Part shown: positions 4,135-58,308 of the stretch, piece by piece | How the letters are laid out: each line of letters begins with the position of its first letter | How positions within the stretch are numbered: the first letter of the stretch is position 1 | The notes under the pieces: generated by a model | What the model was told of the DNA's origin: nothing | Database searches by the model: none | What the model saw: the letters and a program-made list of their open reading frames with translations, nothing else | Translations under genes and position numbers: made by a program | Assembly: GCA_963825865.1 (NCBI GenBank) | Contig: CAWGVG010000003.1 | Coordinates: 179,418 to 243,417 of the forward strand | Source of the DNA: an uncultured Nitrososphaeraceae archaeon | GTDB lineage: Archaea > Thermoproteota > Nitrososphaeria > Nitrososphaerales > Nitrososphaeraceae | Reading direction: 5' to 3' | DNA length: 64,000 bases

Positions 4135-4201
4135 CAATGCATGACACTGTATTCCACGTACTAAAATATCACTAAATATTATTTACTAGAGTATTACCAT
4201 G
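4135..4201 (+). promoter_or_regulatory. Conserved upstream element, copy 2 (before ADH)
   Basis: caatgcatgacactgtattc...attatttactagagtattaccATG; matches 873..938. Confidence 0.6.
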
Positions 4202-5327
4202 GGACAAGAGAGATATATCTATGACCGCAACAACAAGGATCAGGAAAAGAATGCTACTACTATTCTTTCTGCAAGGATTCACGAATACCAAAGACCGCTA
4301 TCTATAGATGATATTCCAAAACCGAGAATATCTACAGGGGAGCAAGTTTTAGTTAAAGTAGCAGCCGCAGGCCTATGTCACAGCGATTTACATCTGATAA
4401 ATGGTCAGTGGAAGGATATTATTCCAATACAATTACCAATTACGCCAGGACATGAAGTAGCAGGTTGGATTGAAGAACTAGGAAATTCTGTTCCTAAAGG
4501 AGTTTTAGATATAGGTGATCTAGTAGCTGTATTTGGAGGATGGGGATGTGGAATTTGCTTTTATTGTAAAAACGGCGATGAGCAATTATGCATAAATCCA
4601 AAATGGCCTGGACTATCTTCGTGGAATGATGGAGGGTTTTCACAGTATATCATAGTACCATCATACAGGTTTTTGATAACTGTGAATACATATCAAAAAT
4701 ATGGCATAAAGCCTGAGGAGCTGGCACCTTTGACTGATGCTGGATTAACACCATATAGAGCAATAAAAAAAATCAGGCATTTGTTAGTACCAGGAACGAA
4801 TATAGCGATAATAGGAGTAGGAGGACTTGGGTCTTATGCGTGTACAATATGCAAAAATATTTGGTGCAGGTTCAAACGTAATAGCAATTGATGTTGATGA
4901 TAGAAAGTTGGAGTTGGCAGAAAGGTTTGGAGCAGATCATGTGATAAATTCAAAGATGCAACAGGACATAAAAAAAGAAGTATTACAAAAGACTGGTGGC
5001 AATGGACTTGATGTTGTTGTTGACTGTGTTGGTTCAGAAGAGACAATAAGAAATTCTGTGGCAACGTTAAGTAAGGGCGGAGTATTGGTAATGGTTGGTC
5101 TATTCGGAGGACAGATAAATATGCCTTTGATTTCAGCTGTAATAAATGAATATCAAGTCATTTGTTCACTTTGGGGAAATTATAATGAGCTACGTGAAGT
5201 TATAGAATTGGCAAAAGATCAAAAGATAAAACACAGAATACATAGCTTTCCATTTACAGAAATAAATAAAGCAATAGATTTACTTAGAGTAGGTAATATA
5301 GAAGGTAGGGCAGTAATTGTTCCATAG
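4199..5327 (+). CDS. Zn-dependent NAD(P) alcohol dehydrogenase (frameshift ~4840)
   Basis: GLCHSDLH, PGHEVAG, CGICFYC..C, TDAGLTPY, GVGGLG, GRAVIVP across two ORFs. Confidence 0.9.
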
Positions 5328-6205: not shown

Positions 6206-8192
6206 TTGGGATTGCTCTTAGGTGCCATCTATTATGTATTAAATCAATCTGTTGTGGGGCAATGGATTTGGTTTTTAACATTAATTATTGGAGGAATTCC
6301 TGTTGTGTGGGGTACTGTTAAGGGAATGATACATCGTCATTTTGCTTCTGATATAGTAGCAATGTTAGCAATTGTTGCAGCTATCTTGACAAATGAAGCA
6401 TTACCAGGAGTAGTTATTGTTATAATGCAAACTGGCGGTAAAGCGCTAGAAGATTATGCTTTTAGAAGAGCTTCATCTTCACTGGATGAATTAATGGCTA
6501 GATCTCCACGCATAGCATATAGAAAAATGAGGGAAGTAAATAACAAAAATAATAATAATAATAATGGTTATGATGGTATTTATGATCAAAGCCTAGAAGA
6601 AATAAAAGTAACCGATGTTCGGATCGGTGATTTACTTGTAGTACCGAGCGGGCGATCTTATTCCTGTCGATGGAGCGATAATCTCCGGACGAGCACAAAT
6701 AGATGAATCCGCACTTACAGGAGAACCTTTGCCTAAAAACAAAGGTGTTGGTGATAAAGTCTTTAGTGGTACTATTAATGCAGGAGGAAGTGCTTTTGAA
6801 ATGCAAGCTAGTAAAGTTAGCGAAGACAGTCAGTATGCCAAAATAGTGCAACTAGTACGAAAAGCCCAAGAGGAGAAAGCTCCAATACAACGACTTGCAG
6901 ATAGATATGCATTATGGTTCACTCCTATAACAGTAGCAATAAGTGGACTAGGTTGGCTCATAACACAAAATCCACAGACTATCTTATCTGTCCTTGTTGT
7001 TGCTACTCCATGTTCACTTATATTTGCAACTCCTGTAGCTATTATGAGTGGAATAAATAGATGTGCAAAGATAGGAATAATAATAAAGACTGGAGCTGCA
7101 ATTGAACAGATAGGCAAATCGCAAGCAGTTGTATTTGATAAAACTGGCACTATTACTTATGGATCTCCTGTTGTAGAGGACATTGTTATATTAACAAAAG
7201 GTGGCAAAATAAGACAAGAAGAGGACGATAATAATAGTATTAATAGCAATAATAGCAATACTGTCATTAGTAACAACAATAACAATGCTTCTGATGATCT
7301 ATTGCTCAAAGCTGCCAGGTATGGAACAAATGTCTTCTCATCCAGCAGCTCGTGTAATTGTCCAAAAAGCAAAAGAAAAGTTTGGTAGTAGTTTATTGCC
7401 CACTCCAAGAAACTTCCATGAAATAGCTGGAGCTGGGGTAGAAGGTGATATTAATGGTGAACATATTATAGTTGGTTCACAAAGTCTTTTTGAAAATAAT
7501 GATAACAAGAAATATCATCGTCAGCAACTGCAACAACAACAACAGCAATTAGAACTAGGATTCGATAAAGAATTACTACTAAATACTATAAAAAAACGAG
7601 GCGAAGGAAAAATGATAGCATTCATTGGTATCAACAGTATTCTTGTAGGAGCTATAGTACTTGGTGATAAGATAAGGTCAGGAGTTAATGTGATGATGCA
7701 ACGTCTTCAAAAGCTTGGAGTAAAAGAAACAGTTATGCTTACAGGAGATAGCTTTGACAATGCACAGGTTATTGCCAAGCAAGCAGCTGTCACTAATTTT
7801 GAATTTAACCTTTTACCAGAGCAGAAGGTATTGGCAATAAAGAAATTGAAAGAACGGTACAAAAATATTGTCATGGTTGGTGATGGAATCAATGATGCTC
7901 CTGCATTGGCGCTGCTACAGTAGGTGTTGCTATGGGAGCTAAAGGAACAGCAATATCAGCTGAGGCCGCAGATATGGTATTGATAGTTGATGATGTGACA
8001 AAAGTTGCGGATGTATTAGAAATAGGTCAGAGAACAATACAAATAGCAAAGCAGAGTATTTACTTTGGGTTAGGAGTCAGTTTCATCCTAATGATTGTTG
8101 CAAGCATTGGATTAATTCCTCCAACAATTGGTGCATTGCTTCAAGAAATATTGGATGTAAGTGTTATATTAAATGCATTAAGGGCAAGATAG
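6206..8192 (+). CDS. Heavy-metal P1B-type ATPase, P1B-5-like (several frameshifts)
   Basis: LTGE, VVATPCSL, DKTGT, SSHP, MLTGD, GDGINDAPAL, QEILD; spread over 4 ORFs. Confidence 0.88.
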
Positions 8193-12080: not shown

Positions 12081-12249
12081 ATTAATTTTATCATCATGGT
12101 CAACAACGAATAAATGCCTTACGTCTGCAACATCATATCAGCTCCACCGATAGCGATGAATTAGAATAGTAATAAGAGGAGAAAACATTATCTGCTTATT
12201 TGTAACTGCGCTAGTTACGTACATCATTAATGTTCTACAGATAACCACC

Positions 12250-12470
12250 AATGATATGTTTGCTACTAATCCTGCCGATAGGTTTCTTGCTTTCGTTGAT
12301 TACTACTAGACCATCTACATAGATCTGAGGACCGATTGCAAGAAATGTCGCTATTTGCAACATATGAGCAGTTGGGTTTACGAACAAGTACGGTCGTCTA
12401 AAAATATGAGATGCTGCATCTTTAATTGGAATACCTTATAGATCAAGATGATAGTTCATGCAAGAACTCG
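12250..12470 (-). pseudogene. CBS-like protein fragment
   Basis: Manual: RRPYLFVNPTAHMLQIATFLAIGPQIYVDGLVVINESKKPIGRISSKHII. Confidence 0.55.
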
Positions 12471-12621
12471 CTCCCTTCAAAGTTAGTGGATGCATGTTCT
12501 TCTACATAACCCTTTAGGCACTTTGCATGATATGATGCATCACTTGAATCTTTACGATTCCCTTATTTTATTATTGAAACAATTAATAATATAGGGTATA
12601 ACTAAATAATAGAATAAGAGT

Positions 12622-13188
12622 ATGAGTATCGAATCTATTCCAGTATCTAGCTTTATGACAACGAATATAATAACACAAACAGAAGATCAAAATATTCGAG
12701 CAGTTTCGAGGACTATGTATGAAAATAATATTGGCAGTATAGTTATTGTAAAAAATAATAATAAAGATCGCGATAGTGATATCAACAACAACAATAACAA
12801 ACAGCCAGTAGGAATAATCACAGAAAGGGATATAGTACGGATATTAGGATCACTAGAACCAGATTTACTCAAAATACCAGTACGCCAGCTGATGAGCAAA
12901 CCTCTAATTACAATATCACCTAATAGCTCCATTAAAGATGCAATGCAGACTATGCAATCGAAGAACATCCGTAGACTAGTAGTAGTAGCTAAAAAAGAAG
13001 GAAAAGTAAATCATGATGATGATAATAATATGGTAGGAATAATCACCGATAAAGATATATTCAGAGCAATAATGAAAAACCAAAGTCTAATACCTAGTCT
13101 ATTAAACGATGAATTACTGACACAACACAAACCAGTATATGAACAATTTAGTGAATATTGGTTTGGTGATATTCTCCATAGGCGTTGA
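12622..13188 (+). CDS. CBS-domain protein
   Basis: IGSIVIV..GIITERDIV..IRRLVVV..GIITDKDIF. Confidence 0.9.
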   Translation: MSIESIPVSSFMTTNIITQTEDQNIRAVSRTMYENNIGSIVIVKNNNKDRDSDINNNNNKQPVGIITERDIVRILGSLEPDLLKIPVRQLMSKPLITISPNSSIKDAMQTMQSKNIRRLVVVAKKEGKVNHDDDNNMVGIITDKDIFRAIMKNQSLIPSLLNDELLTQHKPVYEQFSEYWFGDILHRR

Positions 13189-19108: not shown

Positions 19109-20494
19109 TTGCATAAGGCTTCGTAAAAAAAGACAGTAAATCTTATGTAACCAAGCCTGTATTATTCATCCTATCATCTAGTATCTATTATTAGATATCC
19201 AGTTACTGAGCACTATCATCATTTTCAGATTCTATTAACAACAGCCTAAGGCGCAAGATTAAATCCCAGGTGATATATGAAAAAGAGAAACGCAAAGAAA
19301 GATACTGGATATGCGTAAAGAATAAAGGTGCTATTCCAAATCTGCTGTTAAAATTAGCAGTAGTCTAGATTTTAAAATTGGAATATGATTCACATACCTC
19401 CTATATGAATAACTATTTATCTTTCATAATAATTCAAAAACCTTCTAAGTAAAAGAGTGCTCCTGTTTCTCAAGGTAACAAACCAGACAAGTTATATGCT
19501 GATTTTCTCAACTGTAGAAATGTTTTTGAGAACCGAGATTTTATCATCACTTTAAATATTTCTCTTTATCCATTCACTTTCTCTGCCGTTCTGTAACCAA
19601 GCAAAGCCATTGATTGCCAATATATCGTTAATCTCCCTCCATACTGATCTAGCGATCCACTTTTTTGGCTTTACAGAGATGCAATCCTTTTCACGAACAA
19701 TATTGACATGTTCAATCCTTTTTCCTTATTGAAATTCTATATTGTATTCCCTCTTTGTTTGCTCTTGCTTCAGCACTCTTCTCATATTCAAATAAAAAAC
19801 TCAAACTCGATATTTGTTATTATTATTCAGTCTCTTTCAGAAGATAATTTTTCTTTAATTAGAGTTGGAATCATTACCTTTCTATCATAATCTGTTATTC
19901 CCCAATAATGAGCTTGGAAGAACTTGTCAAACAGAACGCATTGGTTATTATCAATCCTAAAGATTTTGATCTGTTCATAGTTACCTTTACTTATTAGCTT
20001 TTGACCAATCAAAAGTGCATGAAATATCTTTCAGTTAAAGATAACATGTTTTGGTTTAGGTTTCCTTAACATTCTTTTAATATAATCCAAATTAATTTGC
20101 AATCTATACTGCATAACATAATTTGATACAACTGTCTAAAGAACTAGTTCAATATCATTTAGCTTGAATATGTTATGAATATACTACTACTCCAATATTA
20201 ACTGGATATTAGACAGACTGAAAATGGAGTCTTTATACCTTGGAAAACGCTCTGTAGTGCTTCACAATCATATTTGCTAGAGTCATGTGGTTCTTTGATT
20301 ACTCCGGACGGCATGTTGACTAGTGCTGGAGACACAGCAGTAGGATGTATTACATAGTTGGTTGTTATCTATTTTGATGGTATAAGTAAGGATAATTTTT
20401 TTGAAATCATCTCAGATATTATAATAGCAATTAATTTAGTAAACCTGAATTACGAAAGATACTTACATTCAAATGCGCCTCTCCACTATGATAC

Positions 20495-20797
20495 AGTCGG
20501 TTCTAATGAAGCGTGGTTATGGATTGCAGTAGAGCCAATCCATAGACAAATCCTTGGAGTTCACATTTCAAGGCATAGGAATATGATAGTAGCGGAATCA
20601 TTTATTAGATCATTAATCAAAAGTTATAGGAAACATACTGCTGTCTACACCGATGGTGGATTATGGTATCCTGAAGCATGTATTTTTTGTTAGGCCTAAA
20701 ACATAGATTACATTCATCATATGAAAAGAGTGTTGTAGAAAGAGTAATAGTATATTTTAAGGATAGAAGTGAGATATTTGATGATTATTATCCTTGC
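20495..20797 (+). mobile_element. IS6-family DDE transposase fragment
   Basis: AWLWIAVEPIHRQILG..VYTDGGLWYPEAC..HRLHSSYEKSVVER..KDRSEIFDDYYPC. Confidence 0.8.
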
Positions 20798-21232: not shown

Positions 21233-21606
21233 TTAGGCTGGTGTAACGTGGTATCGTGTATCCTTGCCTAAGCCAAACCTTTGAATTTTAAGTACGTTAT
21301 GTCCTTCGCTAAGGTATGAATCGATCTCTTCCGAAGTTCTCTTTCCTACAGTAATGTACTTTTCTTCTTGATTGGTGTTGCGCCATTATTAGGTTCTGTT
21401 ACTGTGTATTGGTATCTCTGAGTCTTTTTGCCATTAAATTCCGCTTCTACCTGTTCTATGTTCTCTGGATTAAATTGTAGAACCTTTTTTTCTCCTGGCT
21501 GTAATTTTATAAACTTGCTGTCCTTCTGTCTGAGTTCTGCATTCCTTTGCAAATTCTGTTTAGCTTTTGGACTCAATCTTTCTGCTGCTGCCAAATTAAA
21601 TCTCAC
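21233..21606 (-). CDS. Putative phage-type ssDNA-binding (OB-fold) protein, frameshift ~21360
   Basis: [19 protein letters not shown]..; the shifted frame ends [19 protein letters not shown]; directly downstream of PolB. Confidence 0.45.
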
Positions 21607-23185
21607 CTCCTGTCTGCAAATTTGCTTTACCCGACCACGCCACTTGGAGGCTTTGCTGTGTGGTCATATTTATACAAATTAAATCTTGTTCTATTGTTGC
21701 GATATCATGACCTGCAATTTCTAGAATGTCTTTGACTGCTTTCCATAACATTATTTTGTATTTTTTGACACTGATGTCTTGCAGATTAAGAGAATATCCT
21801 TCTTTATTGTTGTCAGATTCAAAATACTCTATGACATCTCCTTTCCTTGCACCAATCGCTAACCCTATCTTGCGCTTACGATCGTTTTCATTTTCGTATT
21901 CTTCAGGATTTTTGGATAATCTATTAGATCTCTTTAGTAATTCTGGACTTACATTATGAAGTTCTAAATCAGAGATTGCTTTTTTCAGATTAGCAATAGC
22001 GTCCGCATTATTAACAATGTCATATACTGTCTGTCTGAATACAACATTAATCCATCTAGGTCGATCATTCTTGTCTCCTTCCATACCAACTATGTCTGGT
22101 TCTTTTCCTTGTATGCCAGTCCAACCAACGTAATGCTTTTTCTTATCAGAAATTATTGCTGTTGTGTAGGTCTTGGCATGTTCTACTTCTATACCTAACT
22201 GGTTATAGCATTCTTCTTGAAATCTTGAAATAATATTACTGCTACATGTGGTTCCAGTCGTATCATAGACTGTGTTGTAAAGGAATAAAGAATCAGTGTC
22301 ACCATAGACAATTTCAAATCCCATACCTTTGGCAATTTCTTGCATTTTTGAAAGTGTGTATCTACCGTATGTGGTAATTAGCTCTGCAACCCTCGGATCA
22401 TAATACTTGAAATATTGACTTCCAAAGACACCATATCCACCATTGATCAGAATCTTTAATGCTAGCTGTTTTACTTGATTTCCTAGTTTCTTTTGCTTAA
22501 GTCTCTCTTCTTTGAACACCTTTAATTTGTTTGGAAATGCACCTTCTTTTTGTCTGCATGTCCAGTATTCCTTTTGAATTTTGCAATCCTTTATAATATC
22601 TTCATTTATTCTACATTGAGAATCATCTTTACAACATTCACAATTTACTGTATCAAATGATATATTGTAAAGTATTGCCATTGAAGGGTACAAACTGGCA
22701 ACGTCTACAACAATCAGATCATGGTAAAGTCCCTTTGGTTGAAGAACAAATCCCCCAGCATATTGTTGTAGTTCAGATTTTTCCACATTTCTGTCATATA
22801 ATGAAACTGCTGGTGTTTGACATTCTCCATTAGATATCATACTATCAAAAATAGCTGCCCATCATGTTGATATGCCAGTTCTACATACTCTTTCAAAATC
22901 TAAACCAGTTAGTTCTGATGTGGCTTTCATAGCATTAAGGACTTCACCATTATTATGTTTTGAAAGCTGCATTACCAGCTCAGCATCTCTTAAAACATAT
23001 TTTTTCTGCTCTTCAATTGGAAGGGTTTGAATGTCTTTTCCTGTTAGTCCTTTGTATTTTCTAGCTACTCCTACTCCTCCAAGACCATCTCCTAATACAG
23101 CCTTAGATACATCATCTAGTTTTAGAGTTCGATAAGCATTCTTGAAAATTGTAGTCTGTACCATTGGTTTGCCAAATACAGTCCC
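21596..23185 (-). pseudogene. polB: Family B DNA polymerase (5'-truncated, in-frame TGA at 22862)
   Basis: ExoIII YVLRDAEL, DVASLYPS, KILINGGYG, YGDTDS, KKKHY; the two ORFs are in frame across ST*WAAIFD. Confidence 0.88.
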
Positions 23186-23365
23186 TTTGCCGTATTCAGT
23201 AAGATAACCTCTAGTATTTACCATGGAGATACCATATTTATCGGCATATTCAGTAAGTACTTCAGGAACACCTTCCTTCTCTATAAACACAATATCTGTT
23301 CCCTTCTCTGCAAGTTCATCTATTGCATCAAAACTAACACTAGTCCAAGTACCATCAAAATACAC
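23186..23365 (-). pseudogene. TOPRIM-like fragment (Topo VI-A/Spo11-type) joined to polB
   Basis: DIVFIEKEG..YGISMVNTRGY; unrelated to the PolB N-terminus. Confidence 0.45.
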
Positions 23366-23435
23366 TCAGCCCTTACCCCTGCAATTATACCTATGTCTTC
23401 ACGTTTTCTCCCAGCAGCTTTACAGATTTTACTAA

Positions 23436-24569
23436 TTAACTGCTTGAAGAAGATTTGATATTATCACTGTTAATCCTTGATTGTTCTATAACGTCTTCCA
23501 TTTGATTTTGAAGTCTATTCTCGTTGCTAATCGTCAAAAATTCTATAGCCTTCAAATAATCTTCCAAAAGCTCGTTCTCGGTTGCTCTGTAATAGGAGCC
23601 AGAAATACCTATGGAGTGGCCCATCAGTTTCTCAATGTTTATTGGCTTCATCCCAGAGATTTCGCAACGAGTCTTGAACCACTTACGGAAACCATGATCA
23701 GCCTGAAACTCATGTCTCCTCTTACCATCCTCAAGCTTTTTTCTAAGCCCTTGAATCCAAAGTGCATCTTCCATCAACCTCTTTACACCTGATGATTTTA
23801 GCTTCTTTGGTGAATCAATAAAACCACGTTTGAATCCTTGTTTGGTATTCCACATATTCCTTAGAACCCAACTATTTCCATCAATTGCCTCTCCAGACTC
23901 TCTGCGATAGTTCATCCATTTTTCTAACTCATGATATGCTTCTGGAGTTATGAAACTAAAGTATTCTTCCTCATCTTCTGCATATACAATTATTTTAGCT
24001 GCTATGATTTTTCCATTCCTCTTGGCAGGGTGTATATCTTTCCATCTAAGGTAATCCCACGCACCAAGTCTAATGCCAGAAGAAGACATGGTGCAAACAA
24101 TTGCTTTTATTCGCCTATCTGGATATTCAATTATTCTTTTTATATCTTCAATCGTTGGGGCTCTATCATAGGCATACTTTCTTCCCTTAGGTAATCCTCT
24201 TGTAATCTTCTTCCATGGTATGGATATATCATTCATTTCGCAGAACAACTTTATGGCCTTGACAAAATTATGAACAGTAGCTCCTGTGATCTCTTTTCTC
24301 TCTACTCTCTCTTTTTGTGCTTGCAGAAACCTCAGGATGCTATTCAGAAACCATTTACTGTTACTATTGCCATTTATTCTATCCATCTCTAATGCATTTC
24401 TGCACCTTTGTTGTATGTTCTCGCCTTCAAGGTTGATAAAGTCAAAGAATTTCGTTAGCCTATAGGTGTATTTTTGTTTGGTCACTTGTGAATTTATCGC
24501 AAACATGAATATACCGTAAGGATCTGAATCTACGTTCAGGCATCCTCCTATTACATTTTGTTCTTGCAT
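23436..24569 (-). CDS. Tyrosine recombinase/integrase
   Basis: SSGIRLGA, HGFRK, LMGH, SYY catalytic residues. Confidence 0.92.
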   Translation of the reverse strand: MQEQNVIGGCLNVDSDPYGIFMFAINSQVTKQKYTYRLTKFFDFINLEGENIQQRCRNALEMDRINGNSNSKWFLNSILRFLQAQKERVERKEITGATVHNFVKAIKLFCEMNDISIPWKKITRGLPKGRKYAYDRAPTIEDIKRIIEYPDRRIKAIVCTMSSSGIRLGAWDYLRWKDIHPAKRNGKIIAAKIIVYAEDEEEYFSFITPEAYHELEKWMNYRRESGEAIDGNSWVLRNMWNTKQGFKRGFIDSPKKLKSSGVKRLMEDALWIQGLRKKLEDGKRRHEFQADHGFRKWFKTRCEISGMKPINIEKLMGHSIGISGSYYRATENELLEDYLKAIEFLTISNENRLQNQMEDVIEQSRINSDNIKSSSSS

Positions 24570-24617
24570 TCTATTTTTTCTTTTTCCTAGAACCCTATTT
24601 GAGAACTAATACCAATG

Positions 24618-24641: not shown

Positions 24642-24944
24642 GCATATAAATGGGTTCAGCATATTCCATGGTATGGGCTATAATAAAGGATGATCTCGAT
24701 ACTTTACTTGTCTATTTGAAGTTTATAGGTAATATCTGCGAAATGAGGATTAGTGCCAGGTGAGGTGAGGGCGCCTGTTGGGGTGACACGAACATTGTAA
24801 AAGATTGTATGCTCCCCAGGAGGCAGTGGCTTCAGAAAGACCCACCATCCTTGACTTACCGCGCGCCATGCTCCTGTCACTTGGTTTGCGATATCGGTGT
24901 CAGCTGGTATCGTAAGGTTAAATCCCTTTGAGTAGAAATCGTTA

Positions 24945-26638
24945 ATGTTAGTTTATTTTGGGCCTCTCAGCGATGTCCTAGTTAGAACTATCCAAGGGTC
25001 TAACCCGAGGTTTACGATAGGAGTCTTTGGTGACTGGGGTACTGGAAAAACAACATTGATGAGGCTTATTCAGAAACAACTTCAGGAAAAAAATGATGAA
25101 ACAAAAATGGTAACCGTATGGTTCAATGCCTGGAGATACGAACGAGAAGAGCAATTTGCAGTTATACCTCTTCTCAAGACTATTGCATACGCTATTCCTG
25201 ATAATGTAGGAGAATTAAAGGGCCTCAAACAAAAAATCAAGAGGGCTGGGATGAATGTTTTAAAAGGACTTCCAGACGTTATCCCTTCGCTTGTTAAGCA
25301 ATATTTCGGTGAAGTGGGAGAAAAGGTTACAGAGGATGCGGTCAATAAATTTAAAGCAGAATTCATCCCAAAATTCGAACTTCTAACAGAAGTAGATAGA
25401 GAGACAATCTATTATGATGGTTTAGAACTGATTAGCAATGAGTTATCTAAAATTAGGACCAAACCCGGGTACAGAAACGTTTAGGATTGTAATATTCATT
25501 GATGACCTAGATAGATGCTCTCCTAAAAGAGCATTAGAGGTATTTGAGTCTGTAAAAGTCTTTCTAGATGTGGAGGGTTTTATTTTCGTTATGGGTCTTA
25601 GTCTTACCACTATGGCCAAATTAGTTGAAAAGGAGTACGAGGGTACGGATATCAAAGGGCGAGATTATATACGTAAAATTATCCAAACTCCTATTTTTCT
25701 GCCAGCATGGAAAGTCGGTGATACTATCAGCGTTATTAAGGATCTGATTGATGGAAATCGATTGGGTGGAGCATATGCGAATTTTATTGCTGAAAGAAAA
25801 GATATTCTAGCAACCATTATTGAACCCAATCCAAGAGAAATAAAGCGGTTTATTAATGACTTTCTGATAACGTCTGAATTGTCTGAATTATCTGAACCTA
25901 AATTAGATAAGGAAGCACTTATCCTTATTCGAGCACTTCAATTCAGATGGGATGTTTTTTATGAAAAGTTTATGTCTGATGGGAATTTCAGGTCGGCTAT
26001 AATTGCCGTTTCTTCTCTACATGTGAATTTAGAGTATTTGAACAATTACTTGAACGAAGAGGACTTTGGACGGAGAGGGATGATGATGAGTATAATGTTA
26101 TATCCAACAAGGAGAACCTTGAATATCGGGCAAACGGAAGAGGAACTAAAAGAGAAGATGGAGGCAAACCGGCGAGATATCGAATCCGCTAAGAGAATGT
26201 GGAAGGACCAGGAGAAGTCAAGGAAGGAAAAAGAGCGTGACATACAGTACATACCATTAGGTAGCGCGAAAACGCTAGATGAAGTAAGAGAGGAGAGAAA
26301 TGAAGCAAGAGATCAGACGGAGAAATTTCTGAGAGATGACAGCGAACGCATAAAGAAATTGGAAGAAGAGTACGGTGAAATGCAACGGAGGGCCTCAGAA
26401 GAAGAAAGTGCTCTCAGAATCGAATACGGAGAGTTGGAATAGTATTAGTACGGCGCTGAAAGACAATATAGATATACTCGACGCGTATAAAGCCGAGGTT
26501 AATGAGATAGAGTCTCGGTTATGGGAAGTTTTAGTCCAGAGTAGCAAAAACTTTTCTACGATAACGAATTGGGATGATTACAGACGTGTAATGGGGATAG
26601 CCAGTCATAAAAAGATAGATGTGATTACTCAAAAATGA
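24945..26638 (+). CDS. KAP-family P-loop NTPase with C-terminal coiled coil (frameshifted)
   Basis: IGVFGDWGTGKT, VWFNAWRY, IVIFIDDLDRC, YIRKIIQ, NPREIKRFIN. Confidence 0.88.
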
Positions 26639-26856
26639 GGCTGACTAGGCTACTACTCTTTTAATATTCGCGCTCACTCATCTCGTCTCATCTTATCGAT
26701 AATATAGAGCATTCTTATGAGTCATTTAATTATTTATTTTTTCTAATTAATGCTAAATATTAAACCTCCTGGATACTGCTGTAGGATTTCCTATTATACC
26801 CTCAGCGTGCGGATTACCAGTTTCAGTGCTACCTTTGATTATTTATTAGAGAAAGT

Positions 26857-28360
26857 TTGCTCAAAAACTATGTAATTTATGAAGTTGATAATAACAAGAA
26901 AATCAAGAAATTGGCAAAGCATCAACAGTACAGAGTAGTTACAAAAGCAGTTGAAAGACTAAATCTAGAAGAGGAAGAAAATATTGCAGACAAAGGTGGC
27001 GTAATATGGCATACACAAGGATCAGGTAAATCGCTTTCTATGCTCTGGCTTGCAACTCAATTAATGTATAGGTTTGGAAATCCACCCATTGTAATAGTTA
27101 CTGATAGAACACAATTAGACGAACAAATCCATGGAACTTTCAAGGCTTGTGGATTTCCAGATCCTATACCAGCTAGAAGTAGGAAGCATCTTCAATCCTT
27201 GCTTAGCAATCCCAGAGGCAAAACTATAATGACTACTATTCAGAAATTTGGCTCTAAAGAAAACCACATTCATACAGATGAGAAAGTTATTGCTCTTGTA
27301 GATGAAGCGCACAGAACACAGTACAAATTCAATGCAGAAGCCATGAGATCAGCCATGCCAAATGCAGTATTCTTTGCATTTAGTGGAACTCCAATAGACA
27401 AGAAAAACAAAAGCACCTACAACGTTTTTGGCCCTCTGCTTGATAAATATTCCTTTGAAGAATCAAAAAATGATGGTGCCACATTAAAGATTATGTATGA
27501 AGACAGGATGCCAGATCTTTATGTGGAAGGAGCAGATAGCATAGACCATATCTTTGAACGTGTTTTTTCAGACCTTGATCAAGATACTAAACACAGACTC
27601 AAAAAAGAGTATGTGACAAAAGAGAAAATATCAGAAGCCCCTGCAAGAATCAGAAAGATTTGCCTTGATTTAGTAAATCATTATAGCTTCACATATTCAA
27701 CCCAATGGGTACAAGGCAATGGTAGTTGCAACTTCAAGGGAAGCTGCTGTTACTTACAAAAGGGAATTGGACAAGCTCAATGCACCCAGATCCAAGATTA
27801 TTATGACATCCCATCTGGGTGAAAAAGGTAAAGATGGAAGCAGCTGGGATGAATATTACCTTACTTCTGAGCAACGTGAAGAGGAAGCTGATAGGTTCAA
27901 AGATCCAAATGATGCAACTAAAATTCTAATAGTAGTTGATATGCTTCTTGTAGGCTATGATGTTCCAATAGTCCAGGTCATGTATTTAGATAAAGGGTTA
28001 AGGGAGCATACTTTACTTCAAGCAATAGCCAGAGTAAACAGATTATATGATGTACGAAAAACATATGGATTGATAGTTGATTATTGTGGAATAACAAAAG
28101 ATCTACAAAAAGCACTTGCCATATTTGAAGAAGAAGATATCAAAGGAGCGTTAGAGCCAGCAGAGAAAGAGCTGGAAGAGTTGAAGAACAGACACCAAGA
28201 AGTAATGTCATTTTTCACAGATATTGACAAAGAAATGATGATGCAATAATTGAAAAGTTTGAACCTGTAAACGTCAGAGATGACTTTGAATATGCATTTA
28301 AGATGTTTTCAAAAGCACTAGATATTATCCTTCCAAGAAAGGAAGCAGATCCATATATTC
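26857..28360 (+). pseudogene. hsdR: Type I restriction enzyme R subunit, internal fragment
   Basis: HQQYRVV, GGVIWHTQGSGKS, VTDRTQLD, DEAHRTQY, FSGTPI, DMLLVGYD, LLQAIARVNR. Confidence 0.9.
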
Positions 28361-32028: not shown

Positions 32029-33106
32029 GTGCAACGCAGCGAAATAACAGGTAAGGAAGCTGAACTATATATTAAACTTCCAAATGGCAGGATGAAATGT
32101 ACCTGCCTGCGCTAGGCTATGTGAAATTCCAGAAGGCAAAACAGGATTGTGCGGTATTAGAGGAGTCACAAATAACAAATTATATTTATACGTATATGGT
32201 AGAGTTATTGCAGGTCATATAGACCCGATAGAGAAAAAGCCTGTGACACATTACAGACCAGGTACAGCGATTTATTCTATAGCCACAACAGGATGCAATT
32301 GGCTATGTAAATATTGTCAGAATTATGATATTTCTCAAAGGCGTAAAGTAGAAGGTGTTGAAATGACTCCTGCAAGAAGTCATTCAGAATGCTGAACGTT
32401 ATGGTACGCATGGTATTGCCTATACGTATAATGAACCTTCTATCTTCATTGAATTTGCAGAAGATTGTGGAATTGAGGCCCATAAAAAAGGTATTTTTAA
32501 CATTTTTGTTTCAAATGGCTACGACACTCCTGAATCTGTCAATATGATGAGCAAATTCTTGGATTGCATAACAGTAGACTTCAAGGGAAGTGGCAAGCAG
32601 GAGTTTGTAAGACAGTACATAGGAATTCCAAGTGCTGAACCAATTTTCCAGACTTTAAAAGCAATTAAGGACAAGACAAAGATTCACACCGAAATTACAG
32701 ATCTTATTGTTCCCCAGGTTGGTGATGACTTAGGAAGCTGCCAAGAAGATTGTGTAGATTTATTTATAATGAACTTGGACCTGATACTCCAATTCACTTT
32801 TTGAGGTTCCATCCAGATTACAAAATGATGGAGTTTGGTATGACGCCAGTTGAAACATTGGAGAAGCATCATGCTATTGCAAAAGAGGAAGGTTTGAAGT
32901 ATGCATATCTAGGAAATGTTCCAGGTCATCCATTAGAACACACTTACTGTCCTGAATGCAAAAGCATTGCTATAGAACGTCATGGATATAACATAGGTTC
33001 ATGGAATCTTGATAATAATAACTGTTGTAAAAAATGTGGTTATCCTCTTCCTATAATAGGAAAGCTAAATAGAAGCAGAAAGAATTTGTTTCAAATCATT
33101 CAGTAA
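32029..33106 (+). CDS. amrS: AmmeMemoRadiSam system radical SAM enzyme (frameshifted)
   Basis: [60 protein letters not shown]. Confidence 0.88.
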
Positions 33107-34515: not shown

Positions 34516-34800
34516 CTAGATTTGTTTAGTTAATGGTAGACTAAATGCAAATGTTGCTCCTTTACCATCGGTATTGTTCTCACCCCACATCTTGCCCCCA
34601 TGAGCTTCCACGATACTTTTCGAGATAAACAAACCTAAGCCGGTACCTGCAACTGATTTTGATACAAACTTTGTAAACAATCTAGGAAATATTTCAGGAT
34701 CTATTCCTGTGCCCGTATCCTTCACGCTAACTATGGCATCCTTGTAATCCATCTTTTCTGCCGCTGCTGCTGCCAATAGTTATAGTACCTTCTTTTGTAA
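34516..34800 (-). pseudogene. Sensor histidine kinase HATPase C-terminal fragment
   Basis: VKDTGTGI..LFTKF..GTGLGLFISKSIVEAHGG..GATFAFSLP. Confidence 0.88.
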
Positions 34801-35212: not shown

Positions 35213-38200
35213 TCATAATTCTCTTGCTTCTATAAAGGTAAAGTCTCCTCTCTCTTCATCTGAGTATATCTCAAAACCTTGCTCTTTTACTATTTGATGA
35301 AGATTATACAATCTTCCTTTGATTAAAGACTTTGTTGTTTCTGCAATCATCAAGATGCCATTAGTTACAAGACATCTCTTTGCTTCTGCGATATACTCCT
35401 GCCAATTCTTACCCATTAGCGATAGTGAAAAGATTGCAACATCTAATGCTTCATCAGCTAACGGTACTTTTTTCATATCACATGCTACGACTTTATCATT
35501 TATAGCAACATGGTCAAAGCTATGACACTCTTTGTGATCCGATTGCCTCCATGATTTTTGCTTCTCCCAGCCAAAGTCTCCAATATGCAGTCTCGGGGAT
35601 AGCCGTTTTATTCTTTTGATAATTTCTTCATATGGAATAACACTCCAAGTCTTGCGTGCTTCTCTATACTGTCTGTGATATTCTTCCCACTCTTTTGGGT
35701 CTTCCAGCATTCTTTCATGGGTGGTTTCAGAATTTTCATTATTAATTTGGTTGTTTAATCCTGTAAAGTCACCGTATTTTCTTATTCTTTGTTCTATCTC
35801 AACAGGTGTTAATTTTACCTCAAGATCTCTTCTATTAATACTTGATATTTCTCCTCTCTCTAATCTTTCCAACCATTTTGCTGCTTCCATCATAGCTTGC
35901 TGTGGAGTTACCATGTTCTTATTGGGTAGTCGACCATCTACTGCACAGTCTGCCAATGTACGTTTGTATTGAATTCTTTTCCATTTGTTATCATCATATT
36001 TTAATCCATTGATATTTGCTTTGATGATGTAAACATTTACATAGTCCATCTCACTGCCTTTTCTAACCAATCTACCAACAAGTCTGCTGATATTGTGCAT
36101 TAGTCCATGGAAGAGTATTTATGATTAAATTATTGCAGATGTGCTGCAGCCCATCTACACCAGTGGATATAGGGCGGGAAGCAATCAATACTTGGACTTT
36201 TTTATCCAAAAATCTTTTTAATCCTGAGTGATCTTCACCCGTATATTTTGCATAAGTGTACCCAGCATCTTCTACTGCTTTTGATAATTTTTCAACTATG
36301 TCTGTAACATATTCTGTGTAAATTATAGTCGTACCTTGTATATGTTTTATTATTTCAGGTATTTTCGCATCTGATGCTAACCGTTCAACTGTGAGTGGAT
36401 TTCTTATTAATTCCTTTGCGCTAATATTACTTTTTCTTATATCTATTTCGACGTCTATATGTTCTGTGTATACGCTAATAGGATATGGCGGTATTTCTCT
36501 GATTGATATCAAAGATAATTTTTCATATAATTTGACAGCATTTTGTGGAGTTGGTCTGGTTGATATATCATCATATATTTTACCTGTTATCAACTGTAGC
36601 AAAGATTTACCCTCTTCTAATTCATTTATTACTGGTGTCGCTGATAGTCCAAGGACATTTACATAGCTGTTTTTCTTACTAACATCAGTCATCAATCCTT
36701 CAATGTTATGTCGTCTTTTACTTTCTTCCTTTTCATTTCTTTTCTTTGTGAAATGTATTTCATCCAGTACAACAAAGTCGATTTTTTGTTTCACCAGATT
36801 TAAGATAAGATTTGGGGAATATGGCTGACTGAATAGATCATAGTTTAAGACCAGATATTTGTGTTTATTTTTATCATATTTCTCATAGAACGCTTCATTT
36901 CTTGTTATAACGACGGAATCATGAAATATCTCCAGGATATTATTTTCCCATTGGTCTACTACATCATTTGGACATATTATGAGAGTCATTTTACTGTCAA
37001 TCACACGACTTGCCAGCACAGCTGAAAGTGTTTTTCCTGCTCCAGTTCCAGAGAAATTACCGAAACGCCTATTTGTTTTGATTTTATATGCTACATATCG
37101 CTGCATCAGTGTTGGTGATAGAATCTCCTTATCTTTATCTCTGAATGTATAGCCTTTTGGAATTTCAATACTCTGTGCTCCTTCATAATCTGAAAGAAAT
37201 GTTTCCAATATTATGTCATGATATTTGTTACCATCTTTGCCTTCACGCCTTACATCTGAAATAGTATTTTCTTTATCTCTAAATGCACTTGCCCATAAAT
37301 CCTTTATTGATTTATTAACATAAAACTGCATGGACTCTATATCTTCAGTATATGATTCTAACCTATCAGATTGGGCAAAGATTTGCTGTGGTGTCTTGAT
37401 TTTACCATAATCTAGTGGATCTGTTTCCTTTCCTACCAAATCAGCAATCTCTTGAGAAGATGCAGTTCCTATTTCTTCCTCTTCTGATAAATCTGGTGGA
37501 ATTTCTAAATCAGAATTTACATATTCCTCTATAGTCTTACGCCCTTCAGCTGTACGTCTTGCCTCAATCAAGTTTTTGAAGAATTGTGTGTGACGGCTCT
37601 GTAGATTCAACAGTCCCTTTGTACTTAATAAGTGGTATAGAACAATTTCATCTTCCTCATAAAGCATTCCACTTTCAATCCAATCCTTTAACAATTCCTT
37701 TACTCTTCTTATTGACCAATCTGTTTCTTCATATCCAAGAAAATCATACCAACCTTTCCATACTTCTTCATATATTATATTAGCATTTGTTGGTATATAA
37801 TCAGGCTTTTCTCCAGATCTGCACCACTTTCTCCATTCCTGCCAACTTTTCAATCCAAGTGAATGAACAAATTTTTTAGCTTCTAGAAATGACCAGTATT
37901 TTCTATCCTGTGTAGCTATAGTGCCTGTACCAAGCCAATCTCCCCAACCTTTCCATTCTTTTTTATATACTCGATTAGGACTGTATGGTATATAATCAGG
38001 CTTTTCTCCAGATCTGGACCACTTATTGTATTCTTTCGTATTCTTAAAGCCAAGTGAATGAACAAATTTTTTAGCTTCTAGAAATGACCAGTATTTTCTA
38101 TCCTGTGTAGCTATAGTGCCTGTACCAAACCAATCTCCCCAACTTATCCATTCTTTCTTGTAAGTTCTTTCTGGATGAGGTGGTATACCTTCAGGAAGAT

Positions 38201-38678
38201 CTTTTTCCTTAACATATTTGCGCCATTCTTTATTATTTTTTATTCCCGATGAACGAGCAAATTCTCTTGCTTCCTCAAAAGGCAGTGGTTTAAAATCTTG
38301 CTTCCATACTGTCCCAGTACCAAGAAAATTCCCCCAGCTTATCCATCCTTTATTTTTATATACTTTATGAGGAATACGTGGTATACCTTCAGGAAGACCT
38401 TTCTCCTTAGCATATTTTTCCCACTCCCTAGAATTTTTTATTCCCGATGAACGAGCAAATTCTCTTGCTTGAGAAAAAGATAACCATTCTTTACCAATCC
38501 AATTACGCCAGCTTATCCATCCTTTATTTCTATATACAGAATCAGGACGAGATGGTATACCTTCAGGAAGACCTTTCTCCTTAGCATATTTTTCCCATTC
38601 ATCCTTACCTTCTAATTTGAGTGAATTAGCAAACGCTCTTGCTTCTTCAAATTTCCTCCAAATTGTGTGAAATATCAT
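35213..38678 (-). CDS. Fusion: five Trp-rich repeats + SF2 helicase + Rrp8-like methyltransferase (frameshift ~36080)
   Basis: Repeats FxEAxxF..EW..IP..P..Y..WxxWxDWLG; GTGAGKT, ICP, DEIH, SATP, STGVDGLQ, GRLVRKG; C-terminal EWEEYH..GDFG..SFDH..ACDM..FSLSLMG. Confidence 0.82.
37737..38660 (-). repeat. Five intragenic tandem repeats (~58-66 aa)
   Basis: Identical DNA blocks 37856-37933 / 38051-38128 (195-bp period); shared blocks at ~38380/38554 and ~38237/38436. Confidence 0.9.
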
Positions 38679-39670: not shown

Positions 39671-39764
39671 AAGAACAATTCACCTTCAACCCGACCGCAA
39701 AGATTCCCTTCCTTTTTTCTTTGCATCGCGATTATCGTCATCATTAAAATTATACTGACTAGCC

Positions 39765-39920
39765 TAATGAAGTTAGATTTATCTACAAATGCTACTGGGG
39801 TAGATGATGCCATAAAGTTTGTATCATAGAAATCATCATCTATAAAACCCGAATTAGAAAAACATAAAGTTGATGATGCTGTTACTGTAGATAAGAATCA
39901 CACCAATGACATTCAAAGAT
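39765..39920 (+). pseudogene. C-terminus of a gene preceding a terminase start (MTFKD)
   Basis: MKLDLSTNATGVDDAIKFVS, then atgacattcaaagat at 39906 matching the start at 47072. Confidence 0.45.
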
Positions 39921-40164: not shown

Positions 40165-40693
40165 CCGTTTTTGCTTTCTCGTGCCTTTTTTTGATAGATG
40201 CATATATTTTAGAATATCGATCTTCTCAATAATTTTCAAGACTGGTCAGAATGACAGCCAGGTAGGATGATAATTCCTGTTACCAATAAGTAACAATTTT
40301 TTTCTAACGTGACTTAGAGTAAAGTTCTGGAGTTTGTTAAATCCCTGTCTAAACAAGAAATGATAGATTTTGATGGGGCGGCACCGTGCTCATGAGGCTC
40401 GTCTTGAGCTGCTCGATCTGTTCGAGCGCGCAAGCGTGTTTATCAAGCACACTTTGACAAGAAATTGCCGTAACAAGCTTCTGCATCTGATTGACTGCTT
40501 CTGATTGTTAGTCCGCTATTAGCACGCAGTTCAGCAAATTCAGAATCGCTGATCATGAGAGACCTAATCATCTGTGCCGTCCATATGACGTTAGTGGTTT
40601 GTCTTGGCTTGGACGTCCGATTATAAGCGGAGTATAAGTCCTCTTTTCATAGTGCCGTCGAGAGTTAGTTAAGGATATTGCTTGCTAGAAAAA

Positions 40694-40756
40694 GAAAACA
40701 TAAAGTGGATGATGCTGTTACTGTAGATAAGAAACATAGTAATGACATTTAAGGAT
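40694..40756 (+). repeat. Imperfect direct repeat of 39857..39920, containing a terminase start
   Basis: aaacataaagt(t/g)gatgatgctgttactgtagataagaa..aatgacatt; ATG 40742 reads MTFKDLRKMIISSSQQ. Confidence 0.8.
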
Positions 40757-41354
40757 CTGAGGAAGATGATAATAAGCAGCAGCCAACAAACACTTACAAT
40801 CGCTAATAATGATCTACCATCAGTATAGTGGAGATATGAAAAGCTCAAAAGAGAAGAAGCATCTTTACAAGCTGGTAATCATAATTCAGCCAGAACCTTT
40901 CAGGAATTAAGTGATCTGATATCAACTACACGCAACACATTGGAGCAATATGAGTCAGATTGTGAAGAAAAGAGACTCGAGATAACCAAGCTGCGGATAC
41001 AAATGATTCGAGCAGAGGCCCGCATACGAGATAACACTCCGCGTTAAAGGTAGAAAATCAGGCAGAGACATCCCTAGGCCAGTCTGGTTTGTGCATGAAG
41101 GCAACACGTAATTAAGCTAACAGTTTTTTATTTCGTGTCTATCCGATGTACTGAATCAATTATTCTTTAGAGAGATAGATGATGGATATTTATCGTTGTA
41201 AAAAACCCTTCCTTTTTCTAAAGAAGAATGCAATAATAGAAGTTCTGATAAAAGACGCTATCCCTTTTTTGCAATAGACACCGTTCATTCATCTGCTCTT
41301 GGAGTATTAGGAGATACATCGGATTTACTTGCTACTCCTACAGTATCTTGTTGA

Positions 41355-53315: not shown

Positions 53316-54345
53316 TGTTGTACTTACAAACATAGGTAACAATATAGCTTACAGACATAGGTAACACTTCTGCTAGGAAGTGGAAATCTCTATAGAAATT
53401 AGAACAAAATTCAATCTCATTCATGAACATGAATGGACTGGTAATAGTATTAGCGATATTTGCAATAAATACGAAATATCTAGGAAGACATATTACAAGT
53501 GGAAAAATAGATACATAGAGCACGGAATAGACGGGTTGAAAGACCTATCTAGAAGGCCTCATAGCATCAAAACCAAAGTATCTAAAGAAATAGAAGAAAC
53601 AATACTTGATTTAAGATTAAAGACCTTTGGTACTAGTAGAATCAGGTTCAGATTAAAAAGACTTGGAGTATCATTGAGCAGTAGAACCATATACAAGACA
53701 TTGAAAAAACATACTCTCAACGTTCTAAACTGTAAGGTAAAGAATAATAGAAAGTATAAGCGATTTGCAATGAAACATCCAAATGACATGCTTCAAATGG
53801 ATATACTTGGACCATTTTACGTACACTGTTCTAGCACAAGAAATTACATGATAAGCTGTATAGATGACTGTTCAAGAAAAGTTGCTAGCAAGTGGTCTGA
53901 AAGAAAGAGGAGCATTGATGTTTTGAATGTACTAGAGGAGTGGATTATGGATAACGGAAAGCCCAGGAAAGTTATGCATGACAACGGTAAGCAGTTTACA
54001 TCTAAACTATTCAAACACTTTCTATATAAGAATAACATAAAGGATAAACCAATTCCAAATTCATATCCACAGTTACAAGGAAAGATAGAAGCATATAACA
54101 AGATTGTAAAGAATGAGTTCTTGACAGTTGAAGAAATAACAAGTATTGATGATGGAAAACTAAGGTATGATATGTTTGTCAAAGCATATAATGAAACTAG
54201 GGAACATGGTGGAATAAATGGTCTTACTCCTTCTGAAAGGTTTGTACAAAGGTTAATTAAATCTAAGACATATACAAAAAGGAAGCAAGAAAGTGTAACC
54301 TATGTAGGTAATCAAAATTGTTACCCATCTGTGTAAGTACCAACA
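53316..54345 (+). mobile_element. Complete IS481-family insertion sequence
   Basis: TGT...ACA ends, ~60-bp imperfect TIRs with internal repeats, intact transposase; no target duplication seen. Confidence 0.9.
53380..54336 (+). CDS. IS481-family transposase
   Basis: HTH ISRKTYYKW, DLSRRP, LQMD, IDDCSR, HDNGKQF, QGKIE. Confidence 0.92.
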   Translation: MEISIEIRTKFNLIHEHEWTGNSISDICNKYEISRKTYYKWKNRYIEHGIDGLKDLSRRPHSIKTKVSKEIEETILDLRLKTFGTSRIRFRLKRLGVSLSSRTIYKTLKKHTLNVLNCKVKNNRKYKRFAMKHPNDMLQMDILGPFYVHCSSTRNYMISCIDDCSRKVASKWSERKRSIDVLNVLEEWIMDNGKPRKVMHDNGKQFTSKLFKHFLYKNNIKDKPIPNSYPQLQGKIEAYNKIVKNEFLTVEEITSIDDGKLRYDMFVKAYNETREHGGINGLTPSERFVQRLIKSKTYTKRKQESVTYVGNQNCYPSV

Positions 54346-57579: not shown

Positions 57580-58308
57580 CTTTAAAGGAGATGATAGCTT
57601 TACCTTCAAGCAGTAACTACAGCCATGCAACTATACTTTAGTGGAGAATCAATACGTAATACCCAAAAGTCTATCAGATTGATAGGCGTTCAAGTATCAT
57701 ATCAAACGATTTTCAGATGGATTAGAAAATACGTTAATTTGATGCAAAGCTATGTTGAAAAGTTAAAACCAAATGTTGGCGATGTTTGGAGAGCAGACGA
57801 ACTATGGATCAAAGTTAAGGGAGATATGAAATATTTGTATGCGCTAATGGATGACGAAACAAGGTTCTGGATAGCTCAAGAGGTAGCAGATACAAAATAC
57901 ATGCATGATGCTCAAAACCTATTTCATAAAGGAAAAGAGGCAATGGACAAGAAACCATCTACCCTGATAACTGATGGTTTACGCTCATATCATAATGCCT
58001 TCAATAAAGAGTTTTACACAAATACAAAACCAAAAACAGAGCATATCAACACTATCAGGATGCAAGGAGATATGAATAACAACAAGATGGAACGTTTCAA
58101 TGGTTAGGCTAGAGATAGGGAGAAAGTAATGAGAAATTTGAAAAGAAAAGATACATCCATACTAACTGGCTATCAAATCTATCATAACTACATAAGAGAG
58201 CATCAAGGGTTAGAAAATAAAACACCTGCTGAGGTATCAGGGATTAAAATTCAAGATGAAAATAAATGGATAACTTTAATACAGAATGCTAAGAAAGAAA
58301 ATGTATGA
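57580..58308 (+). mobile_element. IS6-like DDE transposase, 5'-truncated, in-frame TAG at 58105
   Basis: VSYQTIFRW, WRADE, ALMDDETRF, ITDGLRSY, NNNKMERFNG*ARDREK..YHNYIREH..KTPAE..WITLIQNA. Confidence 0.82.

Follow-up and report, generated by a model that had tools for sequence, protein, structure and literature searches.

Two described kinds of enzyme come closest to the gene analyzed here. Rrp8, also known as nucleomethylin, is the methyltransferase that forms N1-methyladenosine (m1A) in 25S/28S rRNA and is a conserved nucleolar housekeeping protein, with neither an ATPase nor a DNA-binding array; in eukaryotes, nucleolar Rrp8 binds chromatin. In the DarB dyad of phage P1 and the polyvalent proteins, an EcoKI/TaqI-like N6-adenine methylase is located N-terminal to a SWI2/SNF2-type ATPase (Iyer et al. 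2017, PMC5512222), and Rrp8 is nowhere mentioned in that article. The gene reported here lies on the minus strand at 35213..38678 of a 64,000-nucleotide stretch (the window) of an uncultured Nitrososphaeraceae archaeon (assembly GCA_963825865.1, contig CAWGVG010000003.1, positions 179,418 to 243,417). In its intended reading of ~1150 aa, it combines in one chain a repeat array, a helical domain, a Snf2-like ATPase, a linker, and an Rrp8-like methyltransferase, in that order.

As assembled, the gene occupies two open reading frames (ORFs) on the minus strand, one of 868 aa (36072..38678) and one of 295 aa (35213..36100), which overlap by 29 nt. In tblastn, both are collinear with single-chain homologues of ~1150 aa, namely P0009, P0003, and P0008. 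P0009 (1158 aa), the closest homologue that is intact, is matched along its full length in two frames: residues 3-868 read in one, which ends at 36084, and residues 868-1158 in the next, which extends from 36085 to 35216. With an X at each of three breaks, the read-through product has 1155 residues. A preliminary description, made from the letters of the window, had joined the two ORFs across one frameshift into a protein of this size, and the collinearity with P0009 bears this out.

Three single-base indels interrupt the gene in all, and it contains no in-frame stop beyond those that the indels cause. Break 1 (36082..36084, minus strand) is one extra base at 36083, located by the boundaries of the tblastn segments at 36084/36085 together with the sequence; it sits within helicase motif VI, between the YQQ and LVGRLVRKG codons, and divides the gene into its two ORFs. 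Breaks 2 and 3 (35526..35569, minus strand), located by frame comparison, are one base missing just after 35570, at the end of GDFG, and one extra base near 35527, before SFD. Between them, 14 codons of the S-adenosylmethionine (SAM) motif I are out of frame, such that GDFG is followed by 19 residues unrelated to the homologues. The other frame over 35526-35567 reads GEAKIMEAIGSQRV, in agreement with the motif I region of the homologues. This GxGxG-type motif (DFGCGE) is invariant in 49 diverse relatives, and its letters are present in the window in another frame, in line with the two compensating indels that the preliminary description saw as hiding residues right after GDFG. Parts of the gene also recur in environmental sequence data. 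From a soil or rhizosphere metatranscriptome run (X10) comes a contig of 222 nt identical to the window at 36581-36802, in the ATPase part; this demonstrates presence but does not prove transcription. Runs X1 and X2 contain DNA contigs that agree with the window at every position over 37362-37604, 37394-37594, and 37921-38118.

The C-terminal domain (35240..35776, minus strand) is a class I SAM methyltransferase of the Rrp8-like Methyltransf_8 type that includes the N-terminal helical extension. Methyltransf_8 (PF05148) matches the window ORF with E=7e-38 and 131.1 bits against a cut-off of 27, and the next best methyltransferase family reaches 23.9 bits. In relatives, the same family scores 88-169 bits, except in the truncated P0268 (41.5 bits). 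Human RRP8/nucleomethylin (2zfu) is the only solved structure matched by sequence (E=3e-24 with the single sequence and 1.3e-52 with a profile). For the structural comparison, an AlphaFold2 model was built of P0107, a natural short form, from 49 sequences (mean pLDDT 80.6, pTM 0.62), and compared with the PDB by a second look with VIA-align at Foldseek's own top 1000 chains, in which the N-terminal 235 residues were barely covered. The model of this homologue, as distinct from the window's broken copy, superimposes on 2zfu_A with Z 26.5 and an rmsd of 1.8 Å over 191/212 residues at 32% identity. Moreover, the (D/N/S)PP(Y/F/W/H) motif of exocyclic-amino DNA methylases is absent from all 49 core sequences, and no N6_Mtase-type Pfam match was obtained in the window protein or the scanned relatives. 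The domain is thus specifically Rrp8-like and not an amino-methyltransferase of the restriction-modification (RM) type, as the preliminary description had recognized.

Upstream of the methyltransferase lies a superfamily 2 (SF2) ATPase core (36053..37118, minus strand) with motifs I (GTGAGKT), II (DEIH), III (SATP), V, and VI. ResIII, SNF2-rel_dom (33.3 bits against a cut-off of 24.9), and DEAD all exceed their Pfam cut-offs on the window ORF, while Helicase_C on the window protein, at 22.0 bits, falls just under its cut-off of 23.5. The motif columns GxGKT, DE, TP, GxDxxQ, and QxxxRxxR are invariant in 49-65 sequences, with motif VI of the window copy split by the frame break. The phage family phrog_62, annotated "DNA helicase," matches P0009 residues 486-705 with E=8e-40. 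In the PDB comparison of the P0107 model, the best match of the motor is INO80 (Z 21.6, rmsd 2.7 Å, 374 aligned residues), followed by ISW1, CSB, SRCAP, SNF2h, Chd1, SWR1, and Mot1, all of which are Snf2-family translocases of double-stranded DNA. The matches from INO80 to Chd1 have Z 19-21.6 over 365-405 aligned residues, compared with 17.6-17.7 for DEAD-box RNA helicases (DbpA 17.7), so that the predicted fold of the motor appears closest to the Snf2-family translocases. Hence, the preliminary description was right to see conserved SF2 motifs I, II, III, V, and VI, but its term "helicase" suits the domain less well than that of a Snf2-like translocase of double-stranded DNA, as opposed to an unwinding helicase.

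Two further segments complete the constant core of ~830-930 aa, which consists of the helical domain, the ATPase, a strongly conserved linker, and the methyltransferase. The linker (FKRTLADCAVDG..WLERLE region; 35777..36052, minus strand) lies between the ATPase and the methyltransferase; its columns are invariant or near-invariant across 49-65 diverse members, and the P0107 model places two long helices there. The domain before the ATPase (37119..37694, minus strand; residues ~329-520) shows conserved columns in three alignments and is mostly helical, as judged from the P0107 model. It has no Pfam family match, and a search of the Atlas gave nothing reliable for it (scores <=0.82, TM <=0.36), the XPB_DRD match at 0.76 from that search being a lead only.

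The N-terminal part of the window protein (37695..38657, minus strand; residues 8-328) is made up of five tandem Trp-rich repeats of ~60-65 aa each. As the preliminary description had observed, there are five such units, and they can be aligned with each other with 11 invariant columns. Its comparison of the repeats with the integrase repeat unit INT_rpt (PF14882) also holds, but by homology. The window protein itself reaches 20.6 bits, below the cut-off of 26.5, whereas the homologues P0040 and P0009 reach 83.4 and 81.2 bits, and the five units of the window align with the INT_rpt units of both; the window repeats are therefore INT_rpt repeats by sequence homology. Similar repeats also occur apart from the core. 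In the marine Nitrosopumilus-type loci L023, L028, and L044, INT_rpt repeats form separate, tightly packed ORFs upstream and downstream of a short-form core, and repeat-only proteins of ~194-223 aa are present in genomes without the core (G064, G080, G098, G107, G128, G193, and G269). The INT_rpt repeats may thus also act in trans.

Comparing the front ends of 25 diverse members, DUF4379 is found in 15, INT_rpt arrays in six, and neither in four, and the DUF4379 treble-clef zinc fingers of those 15 members number 1-14 per protein. The array type switches at least three times on the core tree. INT_rpt and DUF4379 units have no homology detectable by hhalign, and the idea that INT_rpt is a zinc-less derivative of DUF4379 was rejected at an hhalign probability of 0.2%. 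Longer forms carry additional modules: Sigma70_r4 in 26/50, and in others RNA_pol_A_CTD (alpha-CTD), HHH_5 (helix-hairpin-helix), a LacI-type helix-turn-helix, or TAL_effector-like repeats, the last of these above the Pfam cut-off in two members (L088, 69 bits; L091, 39 bits). No nuclease or other effector family was recognized in the scanned members (25 diverse and 50 longer ones), with the accessions PF24655, PF26373, PF22799, PF05605, PF08848, PF09723, and PF05265 left unassigned.

The fusion of an SF2 motor with a methyltransferase, which the preliminary description had put forward from a single broken gene, is genuine, since helicase families and PF05148 occur in one chain in 100 of the 120 best homologues; both parts are likewise present in 25/25 diverse members scanned. 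The family is large. A core profile retrieves 1786 cluster representatives at E<=1e-30 among 1.84 billion, and the best 150 of these all score at least 641 bits, most of them spanning the whole core. The ESM Atlas contains a 1498-member cluster of the same architecture in which tailed phages are the commonest labeled taxon. With one genome scanned per species, 244 stretches encoding the family turned up; going by record titles, the 80 best of these comprise 15 archaeal stretches (13 from Nitrososphaeria) and 65 bacterial ones, the latter including Cyanobacteriota, Chlamydiota, Verrucomicrobiota, Planctomycetota, Chloroflexota, Myxococcota, and Dependentiae. Some carriers have several copies per genome. 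On the core tree, the 24 Nitrososphaeria rows form one clade with a support of 100, the bacterial phyla are intermixed, and the phage rows sit on long basal branches. Cultured carriers include Crinalium epipsammum PCC 9333 and Rhodococcus, both through plasmids, and Ca. Nitrosotenuis aquarius. Among 72,556 plasmids, three carry a family gene, and one Rhodococcus plasmid copy adjoins an FtsK/SpoIIIE transfer gene, with a gene for a single-stranded DNA-binding protein ~7 kb away.

Nine viral-contig loci, on contigs of 16-379 kb, also carry the family gene, together with genes for portal proteins, prohead protease, homing endonuclease, RNA ligase, and salvage of nicotinamide adenine dinucleotide. 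On one 152-kb phage contig (L105:6089-7207 and 12165-12821), the family gene and a GIY-YIG homing endonuclease gene lie between a complete MnmA-like tRNA thiolase gene and its partial duplicate. In databases, members are named "integrase repeat-containing," "zinc-ribbon domain-containing," or "DEAD/DEAH box helicase family" protein. No publication on the family was found in the full-text literature, a scope that left most subscription journals and supplements outside, so that a mention elsewhere is possible. In this sense, the statement of the preliminary description that the system has no established name in archaea stands; its restriction to archaea does not, as many bacterial phyla, phage contigs, and plasmids share the family.

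The gene does not have a conserved partner, the most widespread neighbor family being present in only six of 89 loci. In the archaeal clade, FUN14 (11/49) and an AAA/MCM-like gene (9/49) recur downstream of the family gene, which is probably synteny of close relatives, while a tyrosine integrase is nearby in 6/49 archaeal loci and a DpnII-type endonuclease in 5/49. Matches to PADLOC models (E<=1e-10) were obtained for 22 of 133 immediate neighbors, distributed over 20 of 78 cellular loci, and include full-length Dsr1, NucC, type I and type IIG restriction enzymes, DarG, SspH, and PbeA. At two Myxococcota loci (L093:5960-9100 and L099:80-3229), the last 4-7 nt of a type IIG restriction-methylase gene overlap the beginning of the family gene in an operon-like arrangement, and at L094 the same restriction-methylase family lies 235 nt downstream of it.

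The surroundings of the gene in the window, to a distance of 15 kb, include an integrase (23439-24605), transposase genes, and a KAP NTPase as well as a fragment of PolB and pieces of HsdR. The mobile-element genes of the surroundings (21599-24605, 20358-20690, 53377-54333, and 57598-58104) comprise a family-B DNA polymerase fragment, a tyrosine integrase, an IS481-type transposase, and IS240-type DDE fragments, and the region may be an integrated element or an island. Elsewhere in the window, a piece of a histidine-kinase ATPase gene (HATPase_c; 34519-34779) is 70-87% identical to dozens of relatives scattered over many contigs, and short dispersed repeats, for example at 39760-39920 and 40686-40790, recur on >10 contigs. 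Rfam gave no match over the window.

Errors of the assembly are the most likely cause of the three frame breaks, and the organism itself probably produces a single protein of ~1150 aa. Genes that cannot be pseudogenes show the same defects in this assembly, which points there to the assembly and not to gene decay. When compared with a relative's RpoB (74-91% identity), its only rpoB falls into five aligned pieces, in frames -3, -1, -2, -3, and -2, and contains two short out-of-frame stretches between perfectly conserved flanks, the same compensating-indel signature as that of the methyltransferase motif. With at least eight indels in 3.4 kb, rpoB is more heavily affected than the present gene, with three in 3.5 kb. 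The rpoA' and class I aminoacyl-tRNA synthetase genes are likewise broken (an affected essential-gene region outside the window is G000:C44:24807-28159), and five other genes of the window, encoding an alcohol dehydrogenase (ADH), a P-type ATPase, a KAP NTPase, HsdR, and a radical-SAM protein, are split in the same manner (4190-5324, 6642-7920, 24936-26439, 26839-28246, and 32096-33103). Single-base indel errors are pervasive in the assembly, and only 63% of the 4.98-Mb genome lies in frames of 100 aa or more; frameshift-based findings from this genome need that caveat. In view of the same defects in rpoB and rpoA', the frameshift and the compensating indels noted in the preliminary description most likely have no biological significance. 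A reading of the region chiefly as a gene graveyard, suggested by the split neighbors, the 63% ORF cover, and the decayed second copy, was rejected as the main reading in view of the breaks in rpoB, rpoA', and the synthetase genes. Programmed frameshifting (+1) and a natural division into two proteins were also rejected, because the division cuts motif VI, the SAM motif is out of frame as well, and the break points differ among broken copies.

It is unlikely that the window copy is a true, recently inactivated pseudogene whose three indels are real mutations. None of the indels lies within a homopolymer run, and 11 of 38 assessable archaeal copies in other, mostly short-read, assemblies are broken at varied places by frameshifts, stops, or deletions. 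The same genome has a second, divergent and far more disrupted copy (G000:C61:11749-15677; 75% nucleotide identity to the window copy; seven frame segments with stops), a repeats-plus-N-domain fragment (C62:207387-207983), and a 73-aa methyltransferase remnant (C2:39450-39668), although the error rate of the assembly masks the true degree of decay of these extra copies. Two points weigh specifically against assembly error at this locus. The artefact status is deduced from other genes on other contigs, since no public run contains more than 0.17 of the sampled words and the contigs obtained from the runs do not reach the indel sites. Furthermore, in two relatives of the same subclade, P0002 (92% identical) and P0004, the protein likewise stops at motif VI or directly behind it, which could mean a real break in the lineage; the best metagenome locus in a search for the P0002 contig was 68% identical. 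Against decay stand the broken rpoB, rpoA', and synthetase genes, the five split genes of the window, and the absence of stops other than those caused by the indels. In addition, 18 of the 215 columns invariant in 26 archaeal homologues are altered in the window copy, and at 10 of these 18 the same or a similar change is present in P0002 and/or P0004, so the changes reflect divergence of the lineage as opposed to random decay. The error-prone assembly could also have created the join of helicase and methyltransferase as a chimera, but hundreds of independent homologues from other assemblies are fused and collinear across the join, with the linker conserved, and we give this explanation practically no weight.

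What the intact protein does is suggested by its parts. We consider the chances about even that it is a methyltransferase that is self-contained, tethered to DNA, and driven by ATP, with a role in conflicts between mobile elements and their hosts. The N-terminal array would tether the enzyme to DNA, the ATP-driven motor would move double-stranded DNA past it, and the C-terminal domain would methylate the bases presented in this way; by analogy with Rrp8, the target may be the adenine N1 of a flipped-out or unpaired base. The gene has no fixed partner and works by itself, and its behavior is that of an accessory gene that moves horizontally and resides in islands, integrated elements, plasmids, and large phages. 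It could serve as a weapon or a shield in the conflict between mobile DNA and host, in parallel to the function of the methylase-Snf2 dyad of the phage P1 DarB type. Host defense and element shielding may differ among carriers. While the architecture, the family's size and distribution, and the fold assignments are established by the analysis, the m1A-like chemistry and the defense role suggested in the preliminary description remain inferences, as does the choice of DNA over RNA as the substrate. We favor a DNA-tethered conflict methyltransferase because of the DNA-binding front ends, the Snf2-type motor, the methyltransferase as the sole output, and the autonomy of the single gene, and the conflict role in particular because of the patchy, horizontally mixed distribution, the frequent loss, and the residence in islands, integrated elements, plasmids, and big phages. 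A bolder version, in which a Snf2 motor aimed by programmable-looking arrays writes a Watson-Crick-face mark of the m1A type into DNA, either to attack invaders by blocking their replication or to shield the DNA of phages and plasmids, and in which, as a corollary, the prokaryote/phage family is the evolutionary source of eukaryotic Rrp8, is speculative and on balance improbable.

The chief rival is an RNA target, because the characterized relatives of the catalytic domain methylate rRNA and some phage contexts are rich in RNA-repair genes. The SF2 domain would then remodel rRNA, tRNA, or invader transcripts, and the Rrp8-like domain would install m1A, for example to protect or disable components of translation in a phage-host conflict. 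We regard this as a rather unlikely but serious possibility. Several observations that weigh against DNA as the substrate fit it well. Rrp8 itself is an RNA enzyme that forms m1A in rRNA, Bmt2, the other rRNA m1A enzyme, provides the next closest fold cluster of the Atlas (a lead only), and m1A is known in DNA as a lesion and is not known there as a mark. The carrier phage contigs also hold genes for a CCA-adding enzyme, MnmA, RNA ligases, and NUDIX proteins, and the phage contig L108 has a stand-alone Rrp8-like ORF of 159 aa (L108:9983-10459) in surroundings reminiscent of RNA repair, with genes for two RNA ligases (one of them Rnl1-type), an ATP-dependent ligase, and an AAA_33 kinase. The motor also retains a match to DEAD-box RNA helicases, ~4 Z units below the Snf2 proteins and on a predicted model. 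On the other hand, the Snf2 translocases do fit better, all the additional N-terminal modules that can be named (Sigma70_r4, alpha-CTD, helix-hairpin-helix, LacI-type helix-turn-helix, and TALE-like) are DNA binders, and the PHROG relatives are annotated as DNA helicases. The conflict role has its own counterevidence: none of the 17 neighbors at the nine viral loci matches a PADLOC model, the count of defense matches at cellular loci is suggestive only, because it lacks a background control, and none of 50,697 GenBank phage records matches the family at E<=1e-10, with just short local ATPase matches at 1e-3. A housekeeping function as the archaeal counterpart of Rrp8, methylating 23S rRNA in ribosome biogenesis, would agree with the strong similarity to Rrp8, including the N-terminal helical extension. 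However, full-length copies occur in only four of 301 genomes of the class (the window's own included), although 260 of the 301 are at least 90% complete, so the gene is not a housekeeping gene; copies are also often broken, multiple in some genomes, near integrases, and on phages and plasmids. We therefore hold a housekeeping role to be very improbable.

Rrp8-type methyltransferases have been treated as a speciality of eukaryotic ribosome biogenesis, whereas here such a domain is the sole catalytic output of a very large prokaryote and phage family, joined to a predicted motor resembling those of chromatin remodelers and to interchangeable arrays predicted to bind DNA. If the conflict methyltransferase acts on DNA, it would bring new chemistry to restriction, anti-restriction, and epigenetic biology, in a compact enzyme with a modular targeting end. 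If RNA is methylated, the family would be a new route by which mobile elements edit the translation apparatus. With either substrate, the question of where Rrp8 came from gains a concrete relative among prokaryotes. The family is surprising and lends itself to testing; the window locus itself adds only a damaged-looking copy in an error-prone assembly.

Comparing the family with known systems, the restriction-modification systems of types I, III, and ISP, BREX, and DISARM with its DrmD and DrmMI would be alike, by analogy, in coupling ATP-driven DNA tracking to DNA methylation, and defense genes often adjoin. However, the family has no recognized nuclease domain and no conserved partner gene, and its methyltransferase is of another class. 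The known defense models (PADLOC-DB 2.0 and NCBIfam) gave no specific match but weak generic ones, including DrmD, HmaA, DpdE, and BrxH. The best PADLOC matches cover parts of the ATPase only (DrmD 34-37, HmaA 28, and PbeA 42 bits), and NCBIfam DrmD reaches 33-38 bits against cut-offs of 610-950. The five to fourteen small tandem modules ahead of the enzyme recall TALE and zinc-finger arrays. TALE repeats are near-identical, whereas the INT_rpt units of one protein, for which DNA binding is a prediction, are 29-61% identical to each other. With the DarB-type dyad (PMC5512222), the family shares a single chain that holds a SAM methyltransferase and a Snf2-type ATPase, as well as its presence on phages and plasmids, and the conflict role of that dyad may, by analogy, extend to it. 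Unlike that of DarB, its methyltransferase is Rrp8-like, C-terminal, and without the (D/N/S)PP(Y/F) motif, and an N-terminal repeat array, predicted to bind DNA, is added. The phage family phrog_11801, which represents long phage families annotated as DNA methyltransferase, weakly matches the C lobe of the ATPase. The likeness to Rrp8/nucleomethylin resides in the C-terminal domain, with its class I SAM fold, its N-terminal helical extension, and the motifs DFGCGE, SFD, CDM, and FSLSLMG. In contrast to Rrp8, the family is fused to a Snf2-like motor and occurs sporadically, in prokaryotes and phages.

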